Positions 9,330 to 64,000 of a stretch of DNA of 64,000 nt are shown here, one piece after another. The position numbers and the translations under genes are program-made. The notes beneath the pieces were generated by a model, which searched no databases, was not told the DNA's origin, and saw only the letters and a program-made list of their open reading frames with translations. The stretch comes from Haliotis cracherodii (taxonomy: Eukaryota): NCBI RefSeq assembly GCF_022045235.1, contig NW_027266286.1, positions 68,696,001-68,760,000 of the forward strand, given 5' to 3'. Position 1 is the first letter of the stretch, and each line of letters starts with the position of its first letter.

Positions 9330-9710
9330 TTGCAGATGACTACAACTTTCCTTTATGTCGAGCCGGTCGGGTTGCCTAGTGGTTAAATCGTTCGCTCGTC
9401 ACGCCGAAGACCCGGGTTCGATTCCCGACATGGGTACAATGTGTGAAGCCCATTTCTGGTGTCCCCCGCCGTGATATTGCTGGAATTTTGCTAAAAGCGG
9501 CGTAAAACCATACTCACTCACTCACTCACTTTATGTCGAGCAATATTCCAGCACAGCTCCAGCCTTTTGTGTTTAATATTTCACAACTTTTGAGGTACGA
9601 TCTAGTATGCTCTTTCTACCAAGATTTCGAAGAAAATCTTACGACTCTTTCTCAAAGGATGCTTGATCAAGATTCCAACATTCAAAACATCAGCAACGCT
9701 TTCACAGGTG
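9330..9710 (+). pseudogene. Decayed Penelope-like (Naiad-type) reverse transcriptase C-terminal fragment, split by a SINE
   Basis: After removing the SINE (one frameshift): DDYNFP(x)MSSNIPAQLQPFVFNISQLLRYDLVCSFYQDFEENLTTLSQRMLDQD. This matches the remembered PLE motif DDFNF..NFPFLSSNIP..PAYGVYISQLIRYARACS.Y.DF......L..KLL.QG. Confidence 0.8.
9364..9528 (+). mobile_element. SINE family A, full length (tRNA-Asp-like head, (ACTC)n tail)
   Basis: A box tgcctagtgg; gtcacgccgaagacccgggttcgattccc resembles tRNA-Asp(GTC); perfect 13-bp TSD ctttatgtcgagc (9351-9363 / 9529-9541). Confidence 0.95.
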
Positions 9711-9734
9711 GATGGTGGACAGGTGCAGAACATT

Positions 9735-9990
9735 TCAAAATTTCCATCAGTGACAAACATTGTGTTCGGTGAAATATTCCCTGTTTTGACTAGCATATAT
9801 GTTCCCGTGTTCTTTCAGGTGATCACCTGACTTGCCGTTGCATGTGTTTGTGACGGGTGCCACTGGTGGGGCAGAATACGCATACCTCTTCACGAACACC
9901 TGGTATCCACTAATTGAAAGTGATTCATAAAAACATGCTCATGATATGGTCAGAATCATACGTTGGAGATTTCTGAGGATTATGGATTTT
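9735..9990 (+). mobile_element. 3' non-coding region of the Penelope-like element (copy 1)
   Basis: Follows the RT fragment; gtgacgggtgccactggtggggcagaatacgc...gaacacctg block recurs at 13415-13665 (-) and 56915-57110 (+). Confidence 0.7.
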
Positions 9991-13414: not shown

Positions 13415-13665
13415 CCTTACCATAATCATAAGGAATCCATTATTGTACGATTCCATTGTACGATTCCAACTATAGCATTAGCACTATCAATAATTGATGA
13501 TATCAGGTGTTCGCAAGAATGTGAGCGTATCCTGTCCCACCAGTGGCTCCGGTCATAAACACATACAAAGGCAAGTCAATTGTTCACCTGAAAAAGAAGG
13601 TAACATATGTTTCAAGTCAAAATCAGACATAATTTTTGTCACTGAAGCCTCAATTTGGAAATCTA
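13415..13665 (-). mobile_element. 3' region of the Penelope-like element (copy 2)
   Basis: Reverse complement reads tcaggtgaacaattgacttgcc...gccactggtgggacaggatacgc...gaacacctgatatc, homologous to 9735-9990. Confidence 0.75.
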
Positions 13666-31232: not shown

Positions 31233-31410
31233 TAGACTAACATATAGTCTCTGAAATGAACACATCATACAGAAAATAAAAATCTAATAAAAAGGGAGCC
31301 CAGTGATTCTCTTCATTTTCAGATACTACAGTAATCTAGACTTGCCAAACATTATAGACTTGCATGGGCTGTATTTGATATAAATGTATCAGGGTCTGTA
31401 AGACAGACTA
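31233..31410 (+). mobile_element. AcademH-like non-autonomous element, subfamily E1
   Basis: tagactaacatatagtctctg...cagacta; perfect 9-bp TSD gctgcgttg. Confidence 0.82.
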
Positions 31411-46010: not shown

Positions 46011-46150
46011 CAGTAAACTACGGTTATAACGAACTAAGTTCGTTCCAACCGTAGTTCGTTATAAGCATTGTACGACCTACATACAGCAAATAGTCGGGAC
46101 AATAAAACCAGTTTCCTTATAAGCGTGTTCGTTATAAACGGAGTTTACTG
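46011..46150. mobile_element. pogo/Tigger-type MITE (family M2)
   Basis: cagtaaactacggttataacgaac / gttcgttataaacggagtttactg with TA TSD. Confidence 0.88.
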
Positions 46151-46184
46151 TAGGTCTTTGAAAGTCATTTAGAAGTAATACACA

Positions 46185-46680
46185 TAAGAAAGAGAATACA
46201 TGGATGTCAACTTCTTTATTATGATGAAAACAACATTTCGGAGTATATGCTTACTCCTTCATCAGGTGAATGAATGCCATGAGGCAGATAGCATAAATGT
46301 ACATGTAAGGACAACAACATTAATAAGATAACAAAAGGTGGAAAATAGCAAAGGTTAGAAACTAACAAGGGAAGCCAACAGATGATTTCCACTGATATGT
46401 GATTAGCAATAGACAATAGAAGCCACCACTCTACTGTAATTAGCGCTGATGGTATGGAAGCCATGACTTTAGTTATCATAGATAAGTTATAGGTAATGGA
46501 CGCTGGGCAAACGGATGGAATGGGGTAATAAGCACTGAAAGGTGGAAGAAAGGACATAGCAAAGGGCAAAATTGAAGCCAGCTAGGTAAGCAGCACCAAC
46601 AATACATGCAAAGAAGTGAGGCAGAAATAAATGATTGATTGATATGCATTATATGTTTGTTCACTGATGTTGATGTCAAT
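46185..46680 (-). mobile_element. Penelope-like pseudo-LTR carrying a hammerhead motif
   Basis: Homologous to 57170-57632; reverse complement ends cctgatgaaggagtaagcatatactccgaaatgttg...aataaagaagttgacatccatgtattctctttctta. Confidence 0.8.
46229..46268 (-). ncRNA. Minimal hammerhead ribozyme motif (stem III C>T variant)
   Basis: CTGATGA-A-GGAGTA(agcata)TACTCC-GAAA-TGTT. Confidence 0.7.
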
Positions 46681-51824: not shown

Positions 51825-52005
51825 TAGACTAACATCTCGTCTCTGAAATGAACATATTTTACAGATCAAGCCATTTGTTAAATAAACTGTTATGAAATAT
51901 AATAATAAGGAGTCCAGAGTCTCACTTCTTTTTCAGTGATCTAGATTTGCCAAATAGTATAGGCTTGCATGGGCTGTATTGGGTAAATTTATTTCAGGGT
52001 CTGTT
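51825..52005 (+). mobile_element. AcademH-like element E1, diverged
   Basis: tagactaacatctcgtctctgaaatgaac...cttgcatgggctgtatt...cagggtctg. Confidence 0.7.
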
Positions 52006-53232
52006 TGACGCATTTGAACAGAAGAAAATAAGTAGCTTCCCAAAACAGGTTTTTCAGCAGAATTCATTTTTAAATGTCCAATCATTGGAAGATACATATA
52101 CATGCACAAAGACCCTGAAAAACTCATTAGCCAGATACGCCGCTGCCCAGGCGAAATTGCCGGAATGACTACATATATACAAAAGATACTAATAAAAAAC
52201 CCATGTAATTATTTCCCCCAGTCTCAACGCTATCGAGTGTGTCTGTCCACACGGCCCATGCGACGCTGATGTAAAAGCTCTCACGCATAAAAATCATCAA
52301 AATTATTTGTACCGACGACATTTAATAACTACCGCTACTTTCTACCATATCATTTATCCCAAACGCAAGTCCTGTTTCATTATGGGTTGATCCACAAGCA
52401 TCCGCGTCGCGTATTCCCGGAACCAGCTGGCGATTTGGAACCGTTATATCCCGAAATGTCACTCTAATCCGCGTGTCTCGTCGAAAATTGGATCTACAAG
52501 CGCGTGTCCAGATGATTGAGCGTTTGACAACGCGTTATTATATAATTCATAATTGATATGGACCAGCTGGCACGCCGAAATATAGAGTAGGAGTGAGGGG
52601 TTGGCGAGGTGTTTGTCTAGGTTCGAGAGGGGGGTAAGAGAGTTTATGCTTAAAAGCAGGTACATGCATTAAAACCTCTCAGCTGTATGAAAGCCTTCCC
52701 TAATCTTTATGGTGCTTCTTTAATGCCTTTTGAGTGGTACTTTAACCCTGTTAGCAAGCAAATATGAAACGCTCGCTTGTGGTTGGTTATGTAAGGGGAA
52801 GCAGACGCGCCTTCTTTAAGGAAACAACCATGTTGACCGGTTAGGGGAAGGAAACAGGAGTTCCAGTCTTATGCCTCTCCCTATATTCAGTGCTTGTAGG
52901 CCACGGGCCTTATTGTACACACGGAATCAAACGCGTCTACAACCCAGCATAATTTCAAACCGCTACATTGTCCCTCACAGATATATCATGTGACATACAT
53001 ATCCAAATTTAAATATTAACGCCATCTATTTATCAGTCTCGATTATCTTATATGATATCTGATTATAAGGCACAATAGTGATGAAATTATATGAACGGAT
53101 GACGGAAAATCGCAAAAATGGTGAGCATGACCTGCTCTTCAGGCAGAACCCGCTACTCACACTATTTGTTTAGCAATGTAAGTGACATTGATTGAGGAGG
53201 GAAAATTCCAAAGGTCAGGCATGGATGGCATC

Positions 53233-53435
53233 TAGACTAACATCTAGTCTCTGAAATGAACATGTCGTACAGAAAAAAGCAGTTGTTCAGTTATCTTAAT
53301 AAAAAATATAATAAAAGGGAACCCAGTGACTCTCTTCATTTTCAGATACTGCAGTAATCTAGACTTGCCAAATATTATAGACTTGCATGGGCTGTATTTG
53401 ATATATGTTTGTATCAGGGTCTGAAACACAGACTA
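53233..53435 (+). mobile_element. AcademH-like element E1
   Basis: tagactaacatctagtctctg...cagacta; perfect 10-bp TSD ggatggcatc. Confidence 0.85.
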
Positions 53436-53473
53436 GGATGGCATCGTGCATCGTGTTGTACAACAGACCGATA

Positions 53474-53686
53474 AACTGCCGGGGAAAAGAAAGTAAACAC
53501 CCATGTTTGATGCTGTCTGAAAAGTAAACAAACAAAAAATGGGTGTTTGATGGTGATATATTTGATACGGATATCATAGTGTGTTTTGGATCTTTAGTGT
53601 AGAGTGTTTCAGCAACTGTTTTCAGCCAAGTAACGTTTTGATAACAAATCCAATTTTCAAGGGAATACTTTCTTTTGCGCTGCACT
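53474..53686 (+). mobile_element. Tc1/mariner-type MITE (family M1)
   Basis: actgccggggaaaagaaagtaaacac...tactttcttttgcgc; homologous to 31651-31857. Confidence 0.7.
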
Positions 53687-54632
53687 TTATTTTATTTTTG
53701 TCTCACAGCTGTACATCATAAAGACATGCATATAATAGGAGTTTATAAGTAAAAATTAGAGCATCGCCACTGTTGGCAAGCGACATTATTTAGTAATGTT
53801 CGGCGTTCCGAACCGTAACCGTGATCATTGATGAAGAGAACCAGTTCTTACAGTTGCTGTATCAAGAAGTTGACAAAGAGCCTTTTGATCTTTCAACCTC
53901 GTTCTAAGTCACGTATAAATAGCCGGGTCTGTGGATCATACACAACTAATAACGCATTTGAAAGGTTAAAATAATCCTTTTTTATCTTTCGGTTTTTATA
54001 ACTTCCAGATGCCGTTTAAGTACCTCCTATTTGTTCATTTCAGACATATATAGAACATTTTGTAAATGAAACTAATAACATCAACTTTTATTCTTTTGTT
54101 TACTGAACTTACCAACCTCAAAAATAAGGAGATACAATTAGTGAATGACAAACAAGCTTCATTTCATTTCCCGTTCATCATTAGTGGTACGCTACTAATG
54201 GCATACGGGCAATTATCTCCCTTAGAAACGTTCAACAAGATGGACGATGTCAGTTATCAGGCTGATTGAGTAACGTGATTCGGTGATGGAGGTTACCTAA
54301 CGACCTTAAGACGTGATTTCAAATGAAGGTCAAATATCAGTCAAGTCACCTTTTGACCTCTCTTTCTTCCGTCCTGATACATAACATCGACGTTTGTTAC
54401 TAGGCTGCCGTTTTCTTCTCTGGTCGCTTTAGCGCGATACGAAATAATAAACTCATATTCACATTGTCATTGGAAGGTTTGCCCACTTCTCTCAATAGTC
54501 ACGCGTCATATATCTCAAAGACATTTTAACTTTTGATGCCTACTTATTAATACGTTGAATAGTGACATCCGCGATTACTCTGAAGACGGATTAATAATAT
54601 TCAAATACATACATAACATATTTGGGGAATCT

Positions 54633-54823
54633 GATGGCCAAATCGTCTAAAACGCCGAATTCGCTGTGCAGTGTTGATTCACTTGGACACGCCAGAAGTC
54701 TTTGTGTGTTGGATAACCGGTTCGCCCCGATCATGTTTCTAGGTTTGTCAGCACCATACCCGTGCTCGTGAGTTTCACCAAAGTAGTAAATGTCTGAGAC
54801 ATGCATCACTTTTGTTTTCCCCA
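54633..54823 (+). mobile_element. SINE family C, tail lost
   Basis: gatggccaaatcgtctaa...cttggacacgccagaa...tttctaggtttgtcagcaccatacccgtgctcgtg. Confidence 0.82.
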
Positions 54824-54829
54824 CTCAGT

Positions 54830-54992
54830 CGTGAGTGAGTGAGTATGGTTTTACGCCGCTGTATTCCAGCAATATCACGACGGGGCACACCAGAAAAGGC
54901 TTCACATATGTATCCATGAGAGGTATGGAATCGAACCCGGGCAATCGGCGTGACGAGCGAACGTTTTCTCCACTAGGCTACCCGACCGCCCC
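54830..54992 (-). mobile_element. SINE family A
   Basis: Reverse complement of the family A consensus. Confidence 0.88.
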
Positions 54993-55737
54993 TGAATAAT
55001 AGCATGATAACCACTAGGTTACACACACACACACACACACTCCCCCGCCAACAATAATAATGTCAATACGTTAAGTTTTGTCTCATGTTATCGTAGTCGT
55101 TCATTTCTAGAACAATTACGGTGGACATGACTCTATTACACTTGTTCGCAGAGAATATCCTGTTGCGTTTCTTCCCCGCGTGTACGTTCTGTATTACAAA
55201 TGCAATGGGCTTAACATATATCGATAAACAGCTACCCTGGCTAAACTGGTTGTTTTAGGAGTATTTTAGTAGTTTATAACGGGAGTTGTACTGTTAGATC
55301 GTGGCGCGTGGTCGTTTCTCTCATTTCCAGGTACGTTTTACAGCAGGAGAACCATTTGACCAATTACCTCTCACTAATCCCAGGCTATAATGGAAATAGC
55401 TTTTACAGTAGGATAAATGTATTCGACCTTTCCTGACAGTTGATAGTGACATTTGTAGCTCAATGACATAAATCTTGTTGTCAGATCTGTGTCAGTTGCA
55501 ACGTTGTTGCCTGCACATGGTTTGATACTCTACATACGTACATAGATAGTGCCGTAGTGTCGACACCACGACTGTCAATACACATATATACACTCATATA
55601 CAACGAATATGTTTTGTATATACTGAAGTATTTTATAAACGCAACGTGTATGTCTATGTCGATGGGGTGGTAATTTTGGGTAGTTACAATAATACTGCTA
55701 TATTACAATGAATACCTTATTTCCATCAATTAGATAC

Positions 55738-55948
55738 AGATGGCCCAGTGGTCCAAGGCGTCGCAATCTGCAGTGCAGAGTTGGGTGTCTGGGCCAAAAA
55801 CCCGTGATCTTGGGTTCGAATCCCGATTCACCCTGATTGTGTTTCTACGTTTGTCGGCGCCATATCTGTACTCTAAGTCTAAGACCTGCCTTACTTCGGG
55901 GTTCATCCCCCATCAAGCTGACACGTCGGGAGCACAACTCACTCACTC
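55738..55948 (+). mobile_element. SINE family C, diverged
   Basis: tggcccagtggtccaaggcg A box; gggttcgaatccc B box; (actc)n tail. Confidence 0.8.
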
Positions 55949-55949
55949 C

Positions 55950-56263
55950 AACGATCCCGTCCGCCGTCATATAGCTGGAATATTGCTGAGTGCGGCGTTA
56001 AACAACAAACCAAAACCAAAAAACAACGATCCCGCTGTCCTTGTGAAGATCCGTTCGAGGCGACTATGCTTGTCGTGAGAGGCGACCAACGGGGTTGGGT
56101 GGTCAGACTCGCTAAACTTGGTTGAAACATGCATCGTATCTGAATTTCGTAGATCGATGCTCGTGATGTTAATCACTGGATTGTCTGCCCAGACTCGATT
56201 ATTTACAGACAGCCGTCCTATAGCTTGAATATTGCTGAGTGAGGCGTTAAAGAACAAACAAAC
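55950..56263 (+). mobile_element. Family B tail fragment plus family B copy
   Basis: Tail 55960-56025, then gtgaagatcc...body...ggcgttaaagaacaaacaaac. Confidence 0.82.
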
Positions 56264-56468
56264 TATGATGTCTAATCTAATCTGTTGGCCTTGTGATGTG
56301 TGAAGTGTGCTGCATTGGAGTTAAGGGTGTTGGTTCTGAATATAATCTGCTATAAGTAAAAGCGACAAAACCATTTCCATATTCGTAGGAAATATCTGCT
56401 TGTTTTAAATAGATACGAGCATTTAACGGTATATCTTGAACAATACGAACGGTCAACCACGTTTCCTG

Positions 56469-56592
56469 AGTCTGTCTTACAGACCCTGATAGGACTCTCT
56501 GGGCTCCTTTTTATTATATATTTTTTTAAGATAATTGAACAACTGTTTTTTTCTGTTCTGTAAGATATGTTCATTTCAGAGACGAGATGTTT
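56469..56592 (-). mobile_element. AcademH-like element E1, internally deleted
   Basis: agtctgtcttacagaccctgat...atgttcatttcagagacgagatgtt is the reverse complement of both E1 ends. Confidence 0.65.
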
Positions 56593-56914
56593 CCTGTGTA
56601 ACGATACCATCGATAATCGAGGGCGGTGTCCTATTTAACCGGCGATGATATATATTATCATCGATATGATAGCCATCGGACAAAGGTCAATGCATCAGTT
56701 CGATCAGTAGGCGATATCAGTAGTTACATCAGTTGTCTTCCCTAGTATGACCTCATATTCTCTTTCGTCAGCTGGACACAAAGGCAACACACTTATTGTA
56801 TCCTGTTCTTCTTTTGTTTCGTTGGTCTAAATATGGAACAAATATGATTTCTTTTATACATTTCTGTTTCACCTTGGAATTTTGGCATTTCTTGCTTCTC
56901 CGATTTTGTACTAT

Positions 56915-57110
56915 GTATCTTTCCGTGTTTTTGTCAGGTGAACAACATTGACGTGCCTATGCATGTGTTTGTGACGGCGGACAGGATACACTCTCCGATC
57001 ATCTGATATCATCAATATTTGATAGTGGTTCATAAACACATGATTAGGATATGGTCAGTGTCGTACAGTGGACTCAGCTTTTAGTGGAGAGTTTTAATGA
57101 TTATGGAAAT
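56915..57110 (+). mobile_element. 3' region of the Penelope-like element (copy 3)
   Basis: tcaggtgaacaacattgacgtgcctatgcatgtgtttgtgacgg...gatatggtcag, homologous to 9800-9990. Confidence 0.7.
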
Positions 57111-57169
57111 GTTCCAACAGACCACTGAAATAAATGCCTACTTTACATGTTTAGATAGATTAGGTCTAT

Positions 57170-57208
57170 GAAACGTTTCGGAGTATATGCTTACTCCTTC
57201 ATCAGGGG
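57170..57208 (-). ncRNA. Minimal hammerhead ribozyme motif
   Basis: Reverse complement: CTGATGA-A-GGAGTA(agcata)TACTCC-GAAA-CGTT; stem I disrupted. Confidence 0.7.
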
Positions 57209-57548
57209 AGTGCCATGAGGTAGACAGGATATGTATACATGTAAGGACAACAGAATTAATAAGACAACAAAAGGCGAAAAACAAGGGAAACCAAAAGATG
57301 ATTGGCGCCGATAGGTGATTAACAATAGACAATGGAAGCCAACACTTTATAGCAGTTAGCCCTCATTGTGCCCTGTGCTATGTCCTTTCTTTCACCTATC
57401 AGTGCTAATTACCCCGGCCTCCCGTTTGGCCAGCGCCCATAACCTATAACTTATGTATGATAACTTAAGTAATGGCTTCCATACCTACAGCGCTAATTAC
57501 TGTACAGTGTTGGTTCCATTATATGTTCACTGTCTCATGGCATTCATC

Positions 57549-57588
57549 CACCTGATGAAGGAGTAAGCATATACTCCGAAACGTTGTG
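57549..57588 (+). ncRNA. Minimal type I hammerhead ribozyme motif, intact
   Basis: Stem I cac/gtg; CTGATGA 57552-57558; stem II GGAGTA/TACTCC; GAAA 57578-57581; palindromic ACGT stem III; GUU triplet. Confidence 0.8.
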
Positions 57589-59570
57589 TTCCTCATAATA
57601 AAGAAGTTGACATTCACATATTCCCTTTCTTTAGATAGATTCTCACTCTTTACCGCTATACCAGCGGTTACTCCTAACACCGAGATCTTTCACTGAACAG
57701 CTGCCCCTAATATTACGGAGAAACGGTATCAACACAACAAACCCCAATTCTGTTTCTGTCAATTAGCGAGCAGATCACTGATATGGCGACCATAATTATG
57801 CCTAGGGCTCCTTTGAAGTGACCATCCCGTTATGGAAATCTCCAGCACGTGAGATAACGCACACGTTTATAATTGTACTGTCCACGCGACCGTAATAACT
57901 TCACGAATATAATTGGTCGGCACGTTGGTCTAACGCGTCTATGAACGGCCTAGGATATTTATATCGCGGGTCTTTGATCTGTTTATTAACGGTAATCATT
58001 TGCAACCACGTGATAAAGCCTGACGTCTACAGATTAGACAACACTATGTCGCGTGGATGCAACACAGAGGTTCCGGCAACAGCTGTTATTTGTGACGTCA
58101 TCAAACCGCACCGACTTCCGTCTATTTAAATGAAATTTGTCAATTCGGCAATCTTTGGTCGTAATCGCGGCGTAGTGTTGCCATATCATTTGTATTCCTC
58201 AATGGCCTTTGTCATGTATAATTGTCCTTTAGCAGGCTCAATATTTATACACGTTCACAGATGGGTCGAGAAGCGGTCGAGGGTGGGAGAGAGAGAGAGA
58301 GAGGGGGGGGGGGGGGGAAACGTCAGAAACAAAGGAATTCGATCTACTTGATACAAATTACCATATAACACGGCAATATCCTGCTCTGAAACCAGGTCGT
58401 AGGTTTGGAGCATTTATCAAAGACAAAGATATCAATTTTCGATGTTTGGTAGACGTATTGGCAGACGTATTTGGCAGGCAAATTGTCGCGATATATACAT
58501 GTATATATATATATATATATGTCTGCCAAACATCGAAAGACCGAGACTAAGAGAGAGAGAGAGCATGTTCCATGCTTTTTCTTTGGACATAATGAAAGCA
58601 GTATCACATAAACCAATATAACTACAATATTTTGACATATCTGTATATATGTAACTTTCGTGTTCAATACAGAACAGCAATAATCCTCATATTTTTACTT
58701 TGAAAACTGACGATATGTCCATCCAAGGATTCTCGTTTAAAGTCTGTACTCAATCACTGATATGTCCGAACACGGACAGAAATAACCTTGAGGAAACGCA
58801 ACACAATGCCGACTGAGTGAAATGATTCAACTAGACGCCCTCCGTAGCATCGCCAGCTTTGTAGATCATTGTGAAGTTGGATTCGCGTGTGAAAATATTA
58901 TGCTCGAGGGAGTCCACATTTCCATATCCTCTGTTTTGAACTGCTCCCCTAAGAATACAATACCTACATCCGTAGACCACAACCAACTGTCCCGAATTAT
59001 ATATAGTGCACAATGATTTTCCTGTGGTATTTTCCTGTGGTATAGCGCCAGGAAGAGAATTAAGGTTATTAACTATTTATATTTGCGCGATTGTTTACTT
59101 TAGATTTTTGCATGAACATTTAAATTTAGTAAAATATGCATATTTGAAATTAACACCATGGCTTGTATCTAATCTTATTTCTTATAAATTAGAGGTTTCC
59201 TTAGATATATCACGTATATCTCAGTTGAATGTGGGAGGAAAATGACACAGGTCGTTGACCATTGATACCATGGCACAGACATATTACTGAGAATATGTTG
59301 TCATAATCAGCACTACTCTCATTTCTAGAAAGCATGGGAATTTTGTATAAAGAAGTTAATGAACACCCGATTCCTTCATATTACAATAGTTAATATGTCA
59401 TCACGTGACGGATTATACCAAGACGGTGGACTCACCTCGGGAAGTAAACCCAGTCTCCTGCTTGTAGAGTCCCCGTTTCACCTACTGGGCTACTCCATTT
59501 GATTAAGTTAACTATAAGCGAAACAATTCTTTCGATAACCATAAGATAAAGAGTCTATTTATGATTGTAC

Positions 59571-59642
59571 GAGTGAGTGAGTGAGTTTGGTTTCACGCCG
59601 CTTCTAGCAATATTCCAGCAATATCACGGCGGGGGACACCAA
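59571..59642 (-). mobile_element. SINE family A, 3' half
   Basis: (gtga)n...cacgccgcttctagcaatattccagcaatatcacggcgggggacacc. Confidence 0.85.
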
Positions 59643-60175
59643 AAGATTGTACGAACAAACGACACACACGATCTTGCACAATTCCAAAGTAAAAATTTAT
59701 GGAACCATTTGTCGTTGATTACTATTTTCTTGTCATATTTTATTTTAGTAAAATGTTTGTAAATTACGACGGATCAGGAACTCCATCCATCAAGAGTGAC
59801 GGATCTATATATCACCGTGATTGAACCTACAAATTGACGTTTTCCGCAAGTGAATAGATATCAAGAATAACTCTAATCAGCTGACGTGATTGAAATGTGC
59901 ACCAGGAGACATGAACATGATGTATGTGTGTCAATCTCACAAGTCAGTGTCACATGTTTCAAGGCGATCAGACCCGGAAGTGTAACAGCTTGTCGATTGC
60001 AATCAACACTGCACTGAACACACGATGTACATTGATTGATGTGAATTGTCAGATATGTACATTATCGTTACTGTATGTGTTAGTTCCCCCGAAACTGCTT
60101 AATTTCAATTGAACTGACAATGATTGAAATGTACATTTTGACACCTGTGTTTATTTCCTCGTCGTTTGTCTTCAG

Positions 60176-60208
60176 GCAATGAACGTCCAAACAAACGTCC
60201 TTCCCACA
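60176..60208 (+). other. Candidate 33-nt micro-exon
   Basis: Strong acceptor ttatttcctcgtcgtttgtcttcag| and donor |gtaagg; length divisible by 3; frame unknown. Confidence 0.3.
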
Positions 60209-60709
60209 GTAAGGCAGTTTGGAACAAAGAACGATTTTCCCGGTACGTTTCTTAATCAGACAAATCTAATTGCACCGTATTGAACGATACTAAATATGCA
60301 AGGTGTTTGTCGTCGTCAAAATATCTGTTTGCCAATTACGAGTGTTTCAATATGATCTCTGGTTCTTGCGGTATAAACAGTATGCTTGTCACATCTATCA
60401 TATTTACATCACTTACTTGAAATGTTTCAACGATTCTTTTTTGAAAAACCAAGCTTCGCTATTATGACAGACAGTTTTATTTTGCATGAAGCAATCAGAC
60501 CCATAGTACAAGAGGGTTTTTCACGTGCGATTTACACAGAGAGTTTTTTTTGGGTTTTTTAGGGAAAGATAAACAACTGATCTGACTGAGAATATATATG
60601 CAGGAACTTGACAAAGCCTTACATTACATTAACATGTGTTGACTCACATAGTCTTTGTAATGTATAATAATTAATATTTACAGTTTATAAATCTTCAGTA
60701 TTTTGTGTT

Positions 60710-61098
60710 ATGAGTGAGGTGGCTTGAACCCTCTTTGAATTTCACTTTTATCAAGGCGTGTCAGGAAAGTTGTGTGGAAGGAAAGTCGAGAAGCGACCAC
60801 ATATCCACGAGCACCAGTATGGCGCAGACAAACCAGGGATCGTAATCAGGGCGTTTCGTGGATTCAAACCCACTTTTATAGGTTCCTGGCTCGCCAAAGG
60901 GGCGCAACTCTGCACAGCAAATTGCGATGAGGACGCGACACGACCACGAATCCACGAGCACCAGTATGGCGCTGACAAACCAGGGTTCGTAGTCAGGGCG
61001 ATTCGTGGATTCAAACCCACTTTTATAGGTTCCTGGCTCGCCAAAGGGGCGCAACTCTGCACAGCAAATTGCGAAGAGGACCCGACCGCGCCACCCAT
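60710..61098 (-). mobile_element. SINE family C variant with 147-bp internal tandem duplication
   Basis: atccacgagcaccagtatggcgc at 60803 and 60950; reverse complement aligns to the family C head and body. Confidence 0.8.
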
Positions 61099-61164
61099 GA
61101 CTCTATATGTATTATGAAGCGAGAAATGCAATTGATAATGACAGTTTATTCTGACGAACTGGTA

Positions 61165-61626
61165 GGAATTATATTATACATATCTCATTCTTATCACTGA
61201 ATTTACAAGGTGACGACTGCTAGTGACAACGTCGGCATTACATCAAAGACATGCGTTGTCGATTTCATCTGCCCTGAAATAACTGTCGACAGATCAAACC
61301 GACCGCAACACCAATTCAAAATAAACTTTGATAAGACATGTTCACAGTCCAAACTTTGGGCTGCACCGGTGACAAGCTTTACATAACGCTTGATTAACTC
61401 CCTGTTAGTGCCTGTTAACTTATCTGATGTGTTTCATGGGATTAGGTCAATGGTTCTGTAGCGGTCATTTCACGCCTTTCTTATCTCTGGACGGTCAGTT
61501 ATTGGTGTTGGGGTATTACCTGGTGTCAACACGATGATCAATGTTTAGTCCACGCTCACGGAGACGACGTAACAACAGATGCTGCAACTAGTACAAGAAC
61601 CGCGACTGCTACAGGTAGAGCTGCTG

Positions 61627-61686
<60 letters not shown>

Positions 61687-63819
61687 TACTACTTGAGTAC
61701 AAAGAATGTAATCAATTCTCGACTTCTACTTCTGCTGCAACATCTCATGCAAAAACAACTACTGCTGCAACTACTACTACTACTACTACTACCACTACCA
61801 CTACTACTGCAGAACACCGTCATATACATGTATCTGACTGTTGCTGAGTGCGGTGTTAAACAACGACCAAACACACTACCACGATCCCTGCTGCAACAGC
61901 TACTGTTACTACTACCACTACTGTAGACTAACCAAATAACTCCATTTAAATTGAAAAGGAGCCCCAATGGGAACGGAGATTCCGAACCTCATGAACATTT
62001 AGACTTGCTTCACTCACAGCTCTTGCATCACAGAAAGGACTGGGCGGAAGGGAAAATAATACGGCTCAAGGACTGTGAGACAGGCTACCACGACTGCTAC
62101 TTCTCCTTCTACTATTGCTGCTGCTACTACTACTACTACTACTACTACTATTTGTACTACTGCTTCTACTGATATTGCTACTGCTACTGATATTGCTACT
62201 GTCACGGCTACTACTACTACTACCTCTATTGCTACTGTTACGGCTACTACTATTCCTAATGTACATCTACTGCTGCTGCTGTTGTCGATTCTACACATCT
62301 ACTTTGACCAGAATCACTGCAACTACGAATACTTCTACAACAGCACAAGTCATTCTGCTTCCTTCTATGCTTGCGAAATAATTCACACAGTGGCAAATGA
62401 AACGAGTAAAGCTACATTTTGTGTCTCCCTTCTCAACTTGTCAATAATGACGCATTAGAAAGTCATTTCAAGCAAAATTTATTGTAAGTGTAGATGTAGA
62501 TTACCATATAAAAATCATAAAAATAAAAATTACCTCAGATAAAAGCATATGTTGCTACAAAATACGGAAAGAAATGCATCTTAAGACCACATTGTCCTTT
62601 CTCTGTTTCAAAAGTAGAAAAGAATATCTTTAGGATATATAGATGGTTGTCAATTTCACTCTCATTCACACATTAGCACCTTAAGTGGTGTATATTTCAA
62701 AACCACGCTACACATTTCCACGTGTACTTGCTATGAGTGTCAACATCACTTGTCAAATAAAACTGTCACATGTTTATCAAATATTCATTACACTTCAACA
62801 ACTAAGCCACATCTCTGACAAGGTTGGTCAAGCTTCAAATGGCTCGAGGGTCCTTAACGCTGCTAATATCATAAACGAAAAGCTGTCATACTTCAAAATG
62901 TAATAAATTATGTATTCGGAGTATTGTCATATGAGTTATGACAAACAGCTGATCTTTAACCTCATCACGTCGCTAAGCACCTGGCTGATTGTAAAACATG
63001 GGTTGCGGATGCATCTCATAATAGAAATACACGCTTGTTAGATTATCACCAAAGCCTCACTGTCAACTACCCTCTCCCCCTAACGCGCCTTTTTCACGGG
63101 GCTACCGCTTTAATGGTGTGTCTAACACACGCCCATAACAAGTGGTTATATTTGTTAAAATATTATCGACCTTACCCAGCTCATTTCGTTAAACAAATAT
63201 TTAATTAACTATGTTTTCGTGGAACATGGCTCTTATCATTGGCGATAATGGTCCTGTTTTCGATCATGACAGTGCTTTCATAAAAAATGATTATTTCGCC
63301 ATACCTACATACAAATGAGAATGAGGATGACACTGCTTGTAACAGACAAAATTTTTGGATAACCTTATGAACCGTACTAAATTTAACCTCGCCCCGAAAC
63401 CCCACAAAGGTCATACTCTACCGTTCACAATTACGGTCAGTATCTTCCAAACAAGCCATCTTGGGGGACTGGACAACACCAATAACTGACCGTCCAGAGA
63501 TAAGAAAGGCGTGAAATGACCGCTACAAAGCCATTGACCTAATCCCATGAAACACATTAGATAAGTTAACAGGATCTAACAGAGAGTTAATCAAGCGTTA
63601 TGTAAAGCTTGTCACCGGTGCAGCCCAAAGTTTGGACTGTGAACATGTCTTATCAAAGTTTGTTTTAATTTGGTGTTGCGGTCGGTTTGATCTGTCGACA
63701 GTTATTTCAGGGCAGATGAAATCGACAACTCATGTCTTTGATGTAATGCCGATCTTGTCACTAGCAGTCGTCACCTTGTAAATTCAGTGATAAGAATGAG
63801 ATATGTATAATAGAATTCC
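61165..63819. repeat. 346-bp long inverted repeat (61165-61510 / 63474-63819) enclosing ~1.96 kb
   Basis: Arms align as reverse complements with only scattered mismatches; no TSD seen. Confidence 0.93.
61549..62381 (+). pseudogene. Broken Thr/Ala-rich (mucin-like) reading frame or degenerate (ACT)n array
   Basis: Open frame 61551-61846 (HAHGDDVTTDAATSTRTATATGRAAAT19LLLEYKECNQFSTSTSAATSHAKTTTAATT...); further Thr-rich blocks in shifted frames to 62381; family B tail inserted at ~61816-61871. Confidence 0.4.
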
Positions 63820-63969
63820 GTCTATTTCTAAGGAATAAAATGTCGCTAATAAATTTCTTAGGATTAATGTCGTCTAATTTGACGATGGGGAGGGGGGGGG
63901 GGGGTTGTCACAGTCAAACAAGTCAAACACGTAATTTCAACTATGTATCCCGTTATGTAGGTACTGTGT

Positions 63970-64000
63970 TGAATGAATGAATGAATGAATGAATGAATGA
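63970..64000. repeat. (TGAA)n microsatellite at window end
   Basis: Direct reading. Confidence 0.9.

Follow-up and report, generated by a model that had tools for sequence, protein, structure and literature searches.

Do two minimal hammerhead ribozymes lying back to back form a unit with a role of its own, or are they the residue of a single transposition event? The question is raised by positions 57162-57631 of a 64,000-nt stretch of Haliotis cracherodii DNA (contig NW_027266286.1), which is called here the window. A sequence-only reading had recognized an inverted Penelope-like element (PLE) whose pseudo-LTR carries hammerhead motifs of the minimal type I, and this identification is borne out by the motif features, by the open reading frames (ORFs) of related copies, and by the architecture of the locus. 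The stretch 57162-57631 is very probably one decayed Penelope/Poseidon-type insertion, in which two pseudo-LTR arms, each truncated at its 5' end, meet head to head and the hammerhead pair is likely a passive by-product. Taken alone, the locus is of little importance, since dead stubs that show the published structure of PLE insertions are many. Its family, by comparison, offers a usable data set for the question of what minimal PLE hammerheads do in vivo.

The Hammerhead Motifs

A perfect 35-nt inverted pair (57172-57206 and 57551-57585) holds identical 34-nt minimal hammerhead cores at 57552-57585 on the + strand and 57205-57172 on the - strand, and it confirms that two divergent pseudo-LTR pieces with identical cores are present. 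The sequence common to both copies is CUGAUGA-A-GGAGUA(agcaua)UACUCC-GAAA-CGUU. On the + strand, sequence features and covariation in related motifs point to a complete minimal type I hammerhead at 57549-57588, with a 3-bp stem I (57549-57551 with 57586-57588), the core at 57552-57558, an extra A at 57559, a 6-bp stem II (57560-57565 with 57572-57577), GAAA at 57578-57581, a palindromic ACGU at 57581-57584, and a predicted cut after U57585; the 3-bp stem I and the palindrome (ACGT in the DNA) had been correctly identified from the letters. On the - strand, the minimal core at 57172-57205 has an intact stem II and no stem I, which is impossible there (C.U, C.C, C.A); its 3' strand is deleted and its 5' strand mutated.

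The catalytic boxes CUGANGA, GAAA, and UH occur in both copies, as does the palindrome at 15.2-16.2 (ACGU), with which stem III forms only in a dimer. The extra nucleotide between 9 and 10.1 (A57559), the G10.1-C11.1 pair, and the long stem II are all present. The pairs of the 6-bp stem II have predicted probabilities of 0.88-1.0, and the 3-bp stem I of the + copy has p<=0.01 in the predicted monomer ensemble. An Rfam scan of 52000-64000 returned eight weak matches at E<=5, with no hammerhead among them. Judged by the accessible part of PMC4209133, the motifs share with metazoan PLE minimal type I hammerheads the core boxes, the extra nucleotide ahead of stem II, G10.1-C11.1, the long stem II, the palindromic 15.2-16.2, a short stem I, and the occurrence of opposite-strand pairs, which are reported there at distances of about 100-700 bp. 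They differ in the GUU triplet and in the loss of stem I from the - copy, and the 3 bp of stem I compare with the 4-5 bp given in the same text for Schistosoma and the 2 bp for D. virilis.

Exact 30-nt cores number 433 genome-wide against 0 in a reversed control, and a looser core pattern gives 1245 matches against 14 in its control; thus, the motif pair is not due to chance. Sister families in the genome carry compensatory changes in stem II while spacing and stem I stay the same. Examples of sister hammerhead families lie at G000:C1:54257526, C1:49671664, and L329, and some have a GUC triplet. A metagenome scan for the same core yielded at least 106 distinct matches (at least 118 loci), which are partly related to one another. 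Among the matches listed, 54 have a stem II of at least 5 bp, and 37 of these 54 also have a stem I of at least 3 bp, compared with 7.6 (maximum 16) in a shuffle control; stem I is made of several different pairings, that is, it covaries across related motifs. A narrow pattern for other hammerhead families gave seven matches, six of them clearly variants of the same family, and was set aside.

In the genomic copies, catalytic positions are mutated like their neighbours (U4 in 7/35, G8 in 4/42, and G12 in 14/66, in a tally of 91 arms from which 9 arms rich in exact cores were left out), and their decay is neutral. A third copy of the family in the window, a single long arm with tail on the - strand (46150-46590, ends approximate; core 46236-46265), carries one change in C15.2 of the palindrome and one in stem I. 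Both cores of the pair, by contrast, are exact, yet their arms differ at 19 of the 64 remaining shared positions and have no common derived change there. Exact cores make up 5 of 53 in the sample, from which double exactness is expected in about 0.9% of pairs, and another such pair (C5:21240889/21241126) occurs within the first 100 core matches listed. Double exactness is rare, yet it is expected a few times per genome, and the locus was picked for that feature, which suffices as an explanation; conversion between the arms is a possible source of the identical cores.

The Element That Carries the Motif

No ORF lies between the arms at 57162-57631, where only a stub remains. In other copies, an ORF with reverse transcriptase (RT) and GIY-YIG-type motifs stands directly upstream of the same pseudo-LTR, so that the expected association of the motif with PLE ORFs is found among the genomic copies. 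The ORF end that precedes the pseudo-LTR in L059 and L061-L072 reads GCIYQIPCNCGHQYIG...R..EH...EAI.I, and L103 aligns at 55-64% to an RT protein of 797 aa (over its residues 328-794), a homologous protein that matches Pfam RVT_1; the named homologs of the ORF are uncharacterised gastropod proteins. A profile of eight C-terminal ORF fragments had endonuclease II (2wsh) as its sole match (E=0.0027), which we take to be a GIY-YIG enzyme. A Pfam search with the degraded ORF fragments gave nothing above cut-off, and no full-length element was found in five loci of 8.5-9.5 kb or by tblastn over the examined loci, which reach only residue 328 of 797.

In these copies, a single ORF contains the RT and then a C-terminal GIY-YIG domain with two Cys between its motifs, all of it 5' of the pseudo-LTR. 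Inspection by eye of the fragments L063 and L069 and of the homolog P0002 revealed no extra CX2-5CxxC finger in the segment that links RT to endonuclease; according to the available text of PMC8557442, such a finger marks Neptune/Nematis. Because this zinc finger is lacking in the linker, the motif layout makes Penelope/Poseidon the likely clade of the element. The family tail encodes MPFKD and P0002 begins with MPFKN, and thus the ORF begins within the tail, at +97, its initial codons being part of it (family positions are counted from hammerhead C3 in a majority reference built from 21 long copies). The 3' ends of the family are bimodal, falling at about +80 (short) and about +112 (long), so that a tail, about 32 nt long, is present on just one of the arms; a tail of 30-40 bp on a single arm is a mark of complex insertions by endonuclease-bearing PLEs.

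Anatomy of the Insertion

A 12-bp direct repeat encloses both arms, and the hammerhead pair therefore represents a single insertion, which spans 57162 to 57629/31. The left target-site duplication (57150-57161) recurs exactly at 57630-57641, where the first 2 nt of the right copy equally match the end of the + arm, and the 12-mer is found nowhere else in the window. The - strand arm (57162-57369) is an inverted, 5'-truncated pseudo-LTR covering family positions of about -174 to +33 plus tail, with 20 mismatches over 203 aligned nt; the + strand arm (57363-57631), likewise 5'-truncated, covers about -295 to +80, has the short end, and shows 24 mismatches over 269 aligned nt. Each arm is thus 9-10% diverged from the family reference. 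The head-to-head joint, where some 7 nt fall within both alignments, is placed approximately at 57361-57372.

Both arms have also lost internal sequence. The + arm is missing about 103 nt at 57519/57520. The - arm lacks 70 nt, at a junction with TT microhomology (2 nt), and this gap is followed by the last 12 nt of the family tail (57162-57173, - strand, family positions of about +102 to +113, 11 of 12 nt matching) and then by the target duplication. The sequence-only reading had noted that the - copy loses homology near the predicted cleavage site; the breakpoint does lie 0-2 nt ahead of the predicted cut (57172/57171), and what had been read as a loss of homology proves to be an internal deletion beyond which the tail resumes.

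The arm-arm joint is covered without differences by a contig from public DNA run X1, and the left end, the joint, and the right end are each spanned by contigs from two public DNA runs, one of which is possibly the source of the window; assembly error is therefore unlikely for the inverted pair. An empty pre-insertion site was absent among the junctions listed from the public DNA runs.

Architecture of the Family

The organization of the locus recurs in its relatives. Among the first 100 listed matches of a 23-mer downstream of the motif (1873 genome-wide), 65 sampled arms have an adjacent inverted partner, and the 51 pair loci comprise 41 with a short and a long end, 2 with two long ends, and 8 that are unclassified. 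A target duplication of 10-15 bp was seen at 24 of the 51, compared with 0-1 in three flank-swapped controls, and both arms span the hammerhead core in 11 pair loci. Exact-core loci tell the same way: 27 of 72 have a core on the opposite strand, always divergent and never convergent (0), in a set from which a 46-nt array and 14 further matches of the first 100 listed were left out.

Head-to-head inverted, 5'-truncated PLE structures are already described in the portions available of PMC3846280, PMC8557442, and PMC2377424, and the short-plus-long head-to-head form is both this published structure and the usual form of the family. With the insertions of endonuclease-bearing (EN+) PLEs in those texts, the abalone locus shares the inverted 5'-truncated copy, a tail (about 32 nt) confined to one arm, a pseudo-LTR and tail that enter the start of the ORF, the short target duplication, and microhomology deletions. 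It differs in being a stub with no ORF between the arms and in that the 3' part of the tail arm is mostly deleted; moreover, the duplication measures 12 bp at the locus and 10-15 bp in the family, whereas the rotifer examples have 8-10 bp.

Another hammerhead-bearing, non-coding, PLE-derived form, the non-LTR retrozyme, was considered and rejected for 57162-57631: in the accessible part of bioRxiv 10.64898/2026.07.22.740005, retrozymes are direct tandem units, whereas the arms here are inverted. Tandem arrays whose unit is little more than a hammerhead do occur elsewhere in the genome, at L046:3840-5249 (46 nt x31), L468:689-1245 (44 nt x12.7, sister family), L082:1339-2347 (36 nt x28), L090:1410-2232 (41 nt x19.6), and L215:979-1680 (64 nt x11). 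The 46- and 44-nt units retain stem I and would be natural dimer substrates; both are below the 51-bp minimum reported for retrozymes.

Origin of the Inverted Arms

Two priming events, one at each RT start site, probably gave rise to the two arms. The endonuclease of the element would nick both target strands 12 bp apart, and each 3' end would serve as primer for RT at one or the other of two internal start sites, situated just downstream of the ribozyme; the two cDNAs would halt early and their ends would be joined, with deletions and point changes building up later. The ribozymes would ride along because they are located just upstream of the RT start sites. For the motif in the active parent, the prediction is a weak ribozyme close to the RNA's 5' end, assisted by dimerization or by protein. 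In the available sections of PMC11167929, which deals with Anolis Poseidon in vitro, both target strands are cut and extended, RT has two internal starting points, which bound the tail, and the ribozyme requires protein and is dispensable for insertion in vitro. The Anolis element of that work, PAc, and the present family both have two ends 3' of the ribozyme that delimit the tail and a ribozyme at the junction of pseudo-LTR and ORF, whereas the ORF starts at +97 inside the tail here and not at stem II.

The inverted arm could also have been made from a single copy by fold-back self-priming, the mechanism preferred in the accessible text of PMC3846280, although we regard this as rather doubtful. 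Palindromes at inverted joints are reported in that text, and many joints of the family use short complementarity around the front edge of the ribozyme; on the other hand, the arms of a pair almost never share an RT start site as their end point (the 41 short-plus-long pairs among 51), and the extension of both target strands in vitro described in the sections seen of PMC11167929 speaks against fold-back as well. If correct, it would alter the mechanism and leave the identity of the insertion unchanged. That two independent insertions landed back to back is extremely improbable: a common derived substitution occurs at 0 of 99 shared positions, as separate histories would allow, but a single duplication encloses both arms, and the pairing of a short with a long end is the rule of the family.

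Function at the Locus

A two-way ribozyme unit kept by the host, from which transcription in either direction would give self-cleaving RNA, has hardly any likelihood. Both cores are exact although their flanks are 9-10% off the family, and this is the observation in its favour; several others weigh against it. The - copy has no stem I, and since the two copies sit on opposite strands, no RNA carries the tandem pair from which a dimer could form. For read-through RNA, folding predicts a long hairpin (-166 kcal/mol) in which the + core is masked, pairing with the - arm at a mean probability of 0.98 in the predicted fold of RNA across both arms. Divergent pairs are, moreover, common by-products in this family, and in the accessible part of PMC4209133, single minimal motifs show no cleavage. 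Only the + copy retains the full predicted ribozyme fold, and in RNA spanning both arms this copy would be masked as well. The claim that the locus is a hammerhead unit working in two directions is thus not upheld, given the missing stem I of the - copy, the lack of a tandem dimer, and the masking of the + core in read-through RNA.

Breakpoints at the Cleavage Site

The deletion in the - arm could be a fossil of ribozyme cleavage, if RT, having begun in the tail, switched to the 3' terminus of the 5' piece left by the cut. Were this so, GUU-site breakpoints across the family would document in a genome, for the first time, that minimal PLE hammerheads cut their own template during transposition. 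The proposal starts from the left breakpoint, 0-2 nt ahead of the predicted cut, and the base after that cut is G in 920 copies and non-G in 63. The first 30 matches with non-G after GUU (26 independent loci) gave 9 breakpoints against 7/58 in the controls (p=0.03). Once all 63 had been classified, however, the enrichment was not significant: 14 of 58 independent loci (window locus left out) had breakpoints at the cut site, compared with 7 of 58 for the two control positions (p=0.15); for events longer than 5 nt the count was 9 of 58 (p=0.79), the classification being partly by eye and the controls using 30 of 89 and 30 of 78 matches, with denominators unmeasured.

Other observations also disfavour a cleavage fossil. 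The site lies within a GUU/GU repeat that is prone to slippage, the control locus L217 has a similar deletion into the tail that starts from loop II, and 5' ends form no peak at the cut (8/89 at +29..+36). The junction of the - arm deletion was shared by no other copy among the classified loci. Furthermore, the accessible part of PMC11167929 records no RNA-seq ends at the site and insertion with no need for cleavage. We therefore consider a cleavage origin of the deletion quite unlikely, and prefer to regard it as one of the later deletions of the decayed insertion.

5' Ends at the Front Edge of the Ribozyme

A different accumulation of ends is found in the family. Of the arms that reach +5, 44 of 71 have their 5' end between +5 and -10 (loci L223-L252, L265-L312, and L471-L478), a rate of 0.055 per nt against about 0.01 in the flanking intervals, that is, about fivefold; four 5' ends placed at -32 are artefacts, produced where the alignment ran on into the inverted arm. 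The cluster also appears in unpaired arms (12/29). Short self-complementarity at the front edge accounts for many of the paired joints. Beside the cluster, at -8..-3, stands TCATTC, which we take to resemble the initiator consensus, and a putative RNA template starting at the front edge of the ribozyme is the likely cause of the clustered ends. The 3' ends of the family fit the model with two start sites, no significant pile-up occurs at the cut, and the 5' pile-up would fit a short template. A literature search, which was not exhaustive, found no paper devoted to such a cluster. Both arms at 57162-57631 extend far beyond it.

Neighbouring and Other Repeats

The repeat at 56900-57115 (+), next to the insertion, had been described as a fragment of another PLE family. 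It is indeed the 3' piece of a separate family (best relatives 72-78%, with one short match of 84%, among 1906 candidates), but it is an independent repeat and not part of the insertion, as it lies outside the 12-bp duplication and is more diverged than the arms. In other copies of this family, frame fragments resembling an RT thumb are located directly upstream, and 10 of 11 loci lack the core pattern; a protein search with the family gave no match. Naiad PLEs have an N-terminal endonuclease, an RT at the ORF's C-terminal end, and no canonical hammerhead. The neighbour is likely the 3' end of a Naiad-type PLE, a label that we assume from its motifs. The same abundant second repeat is found in the window at 9570-9970 (+) and 13480-13600 (-) in addition to 56900-57115 (+).

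Of 20 tail matches among the examined loci, 12 (L015, L016, L051, L083, L104, L107, L119, L144, L151, L154, L178, and L490) have a LINE-like element with an (AAGT)n tail lying upstream of the hammerhead core at a distance of about 10-20 nt, a share that is inflated because the loci were selected around the core; duplications are present in L104 and L107. At 58437-58538, a short inverted repeat surrounds a (TA)n run and gives weak matches to miRNA models, below gathering scores. Finally, a dispersed repeat of about 100-130 nt has four copies in the window, at 56490-56590, 53239-53332, 51831-51919, and 31239-31409.
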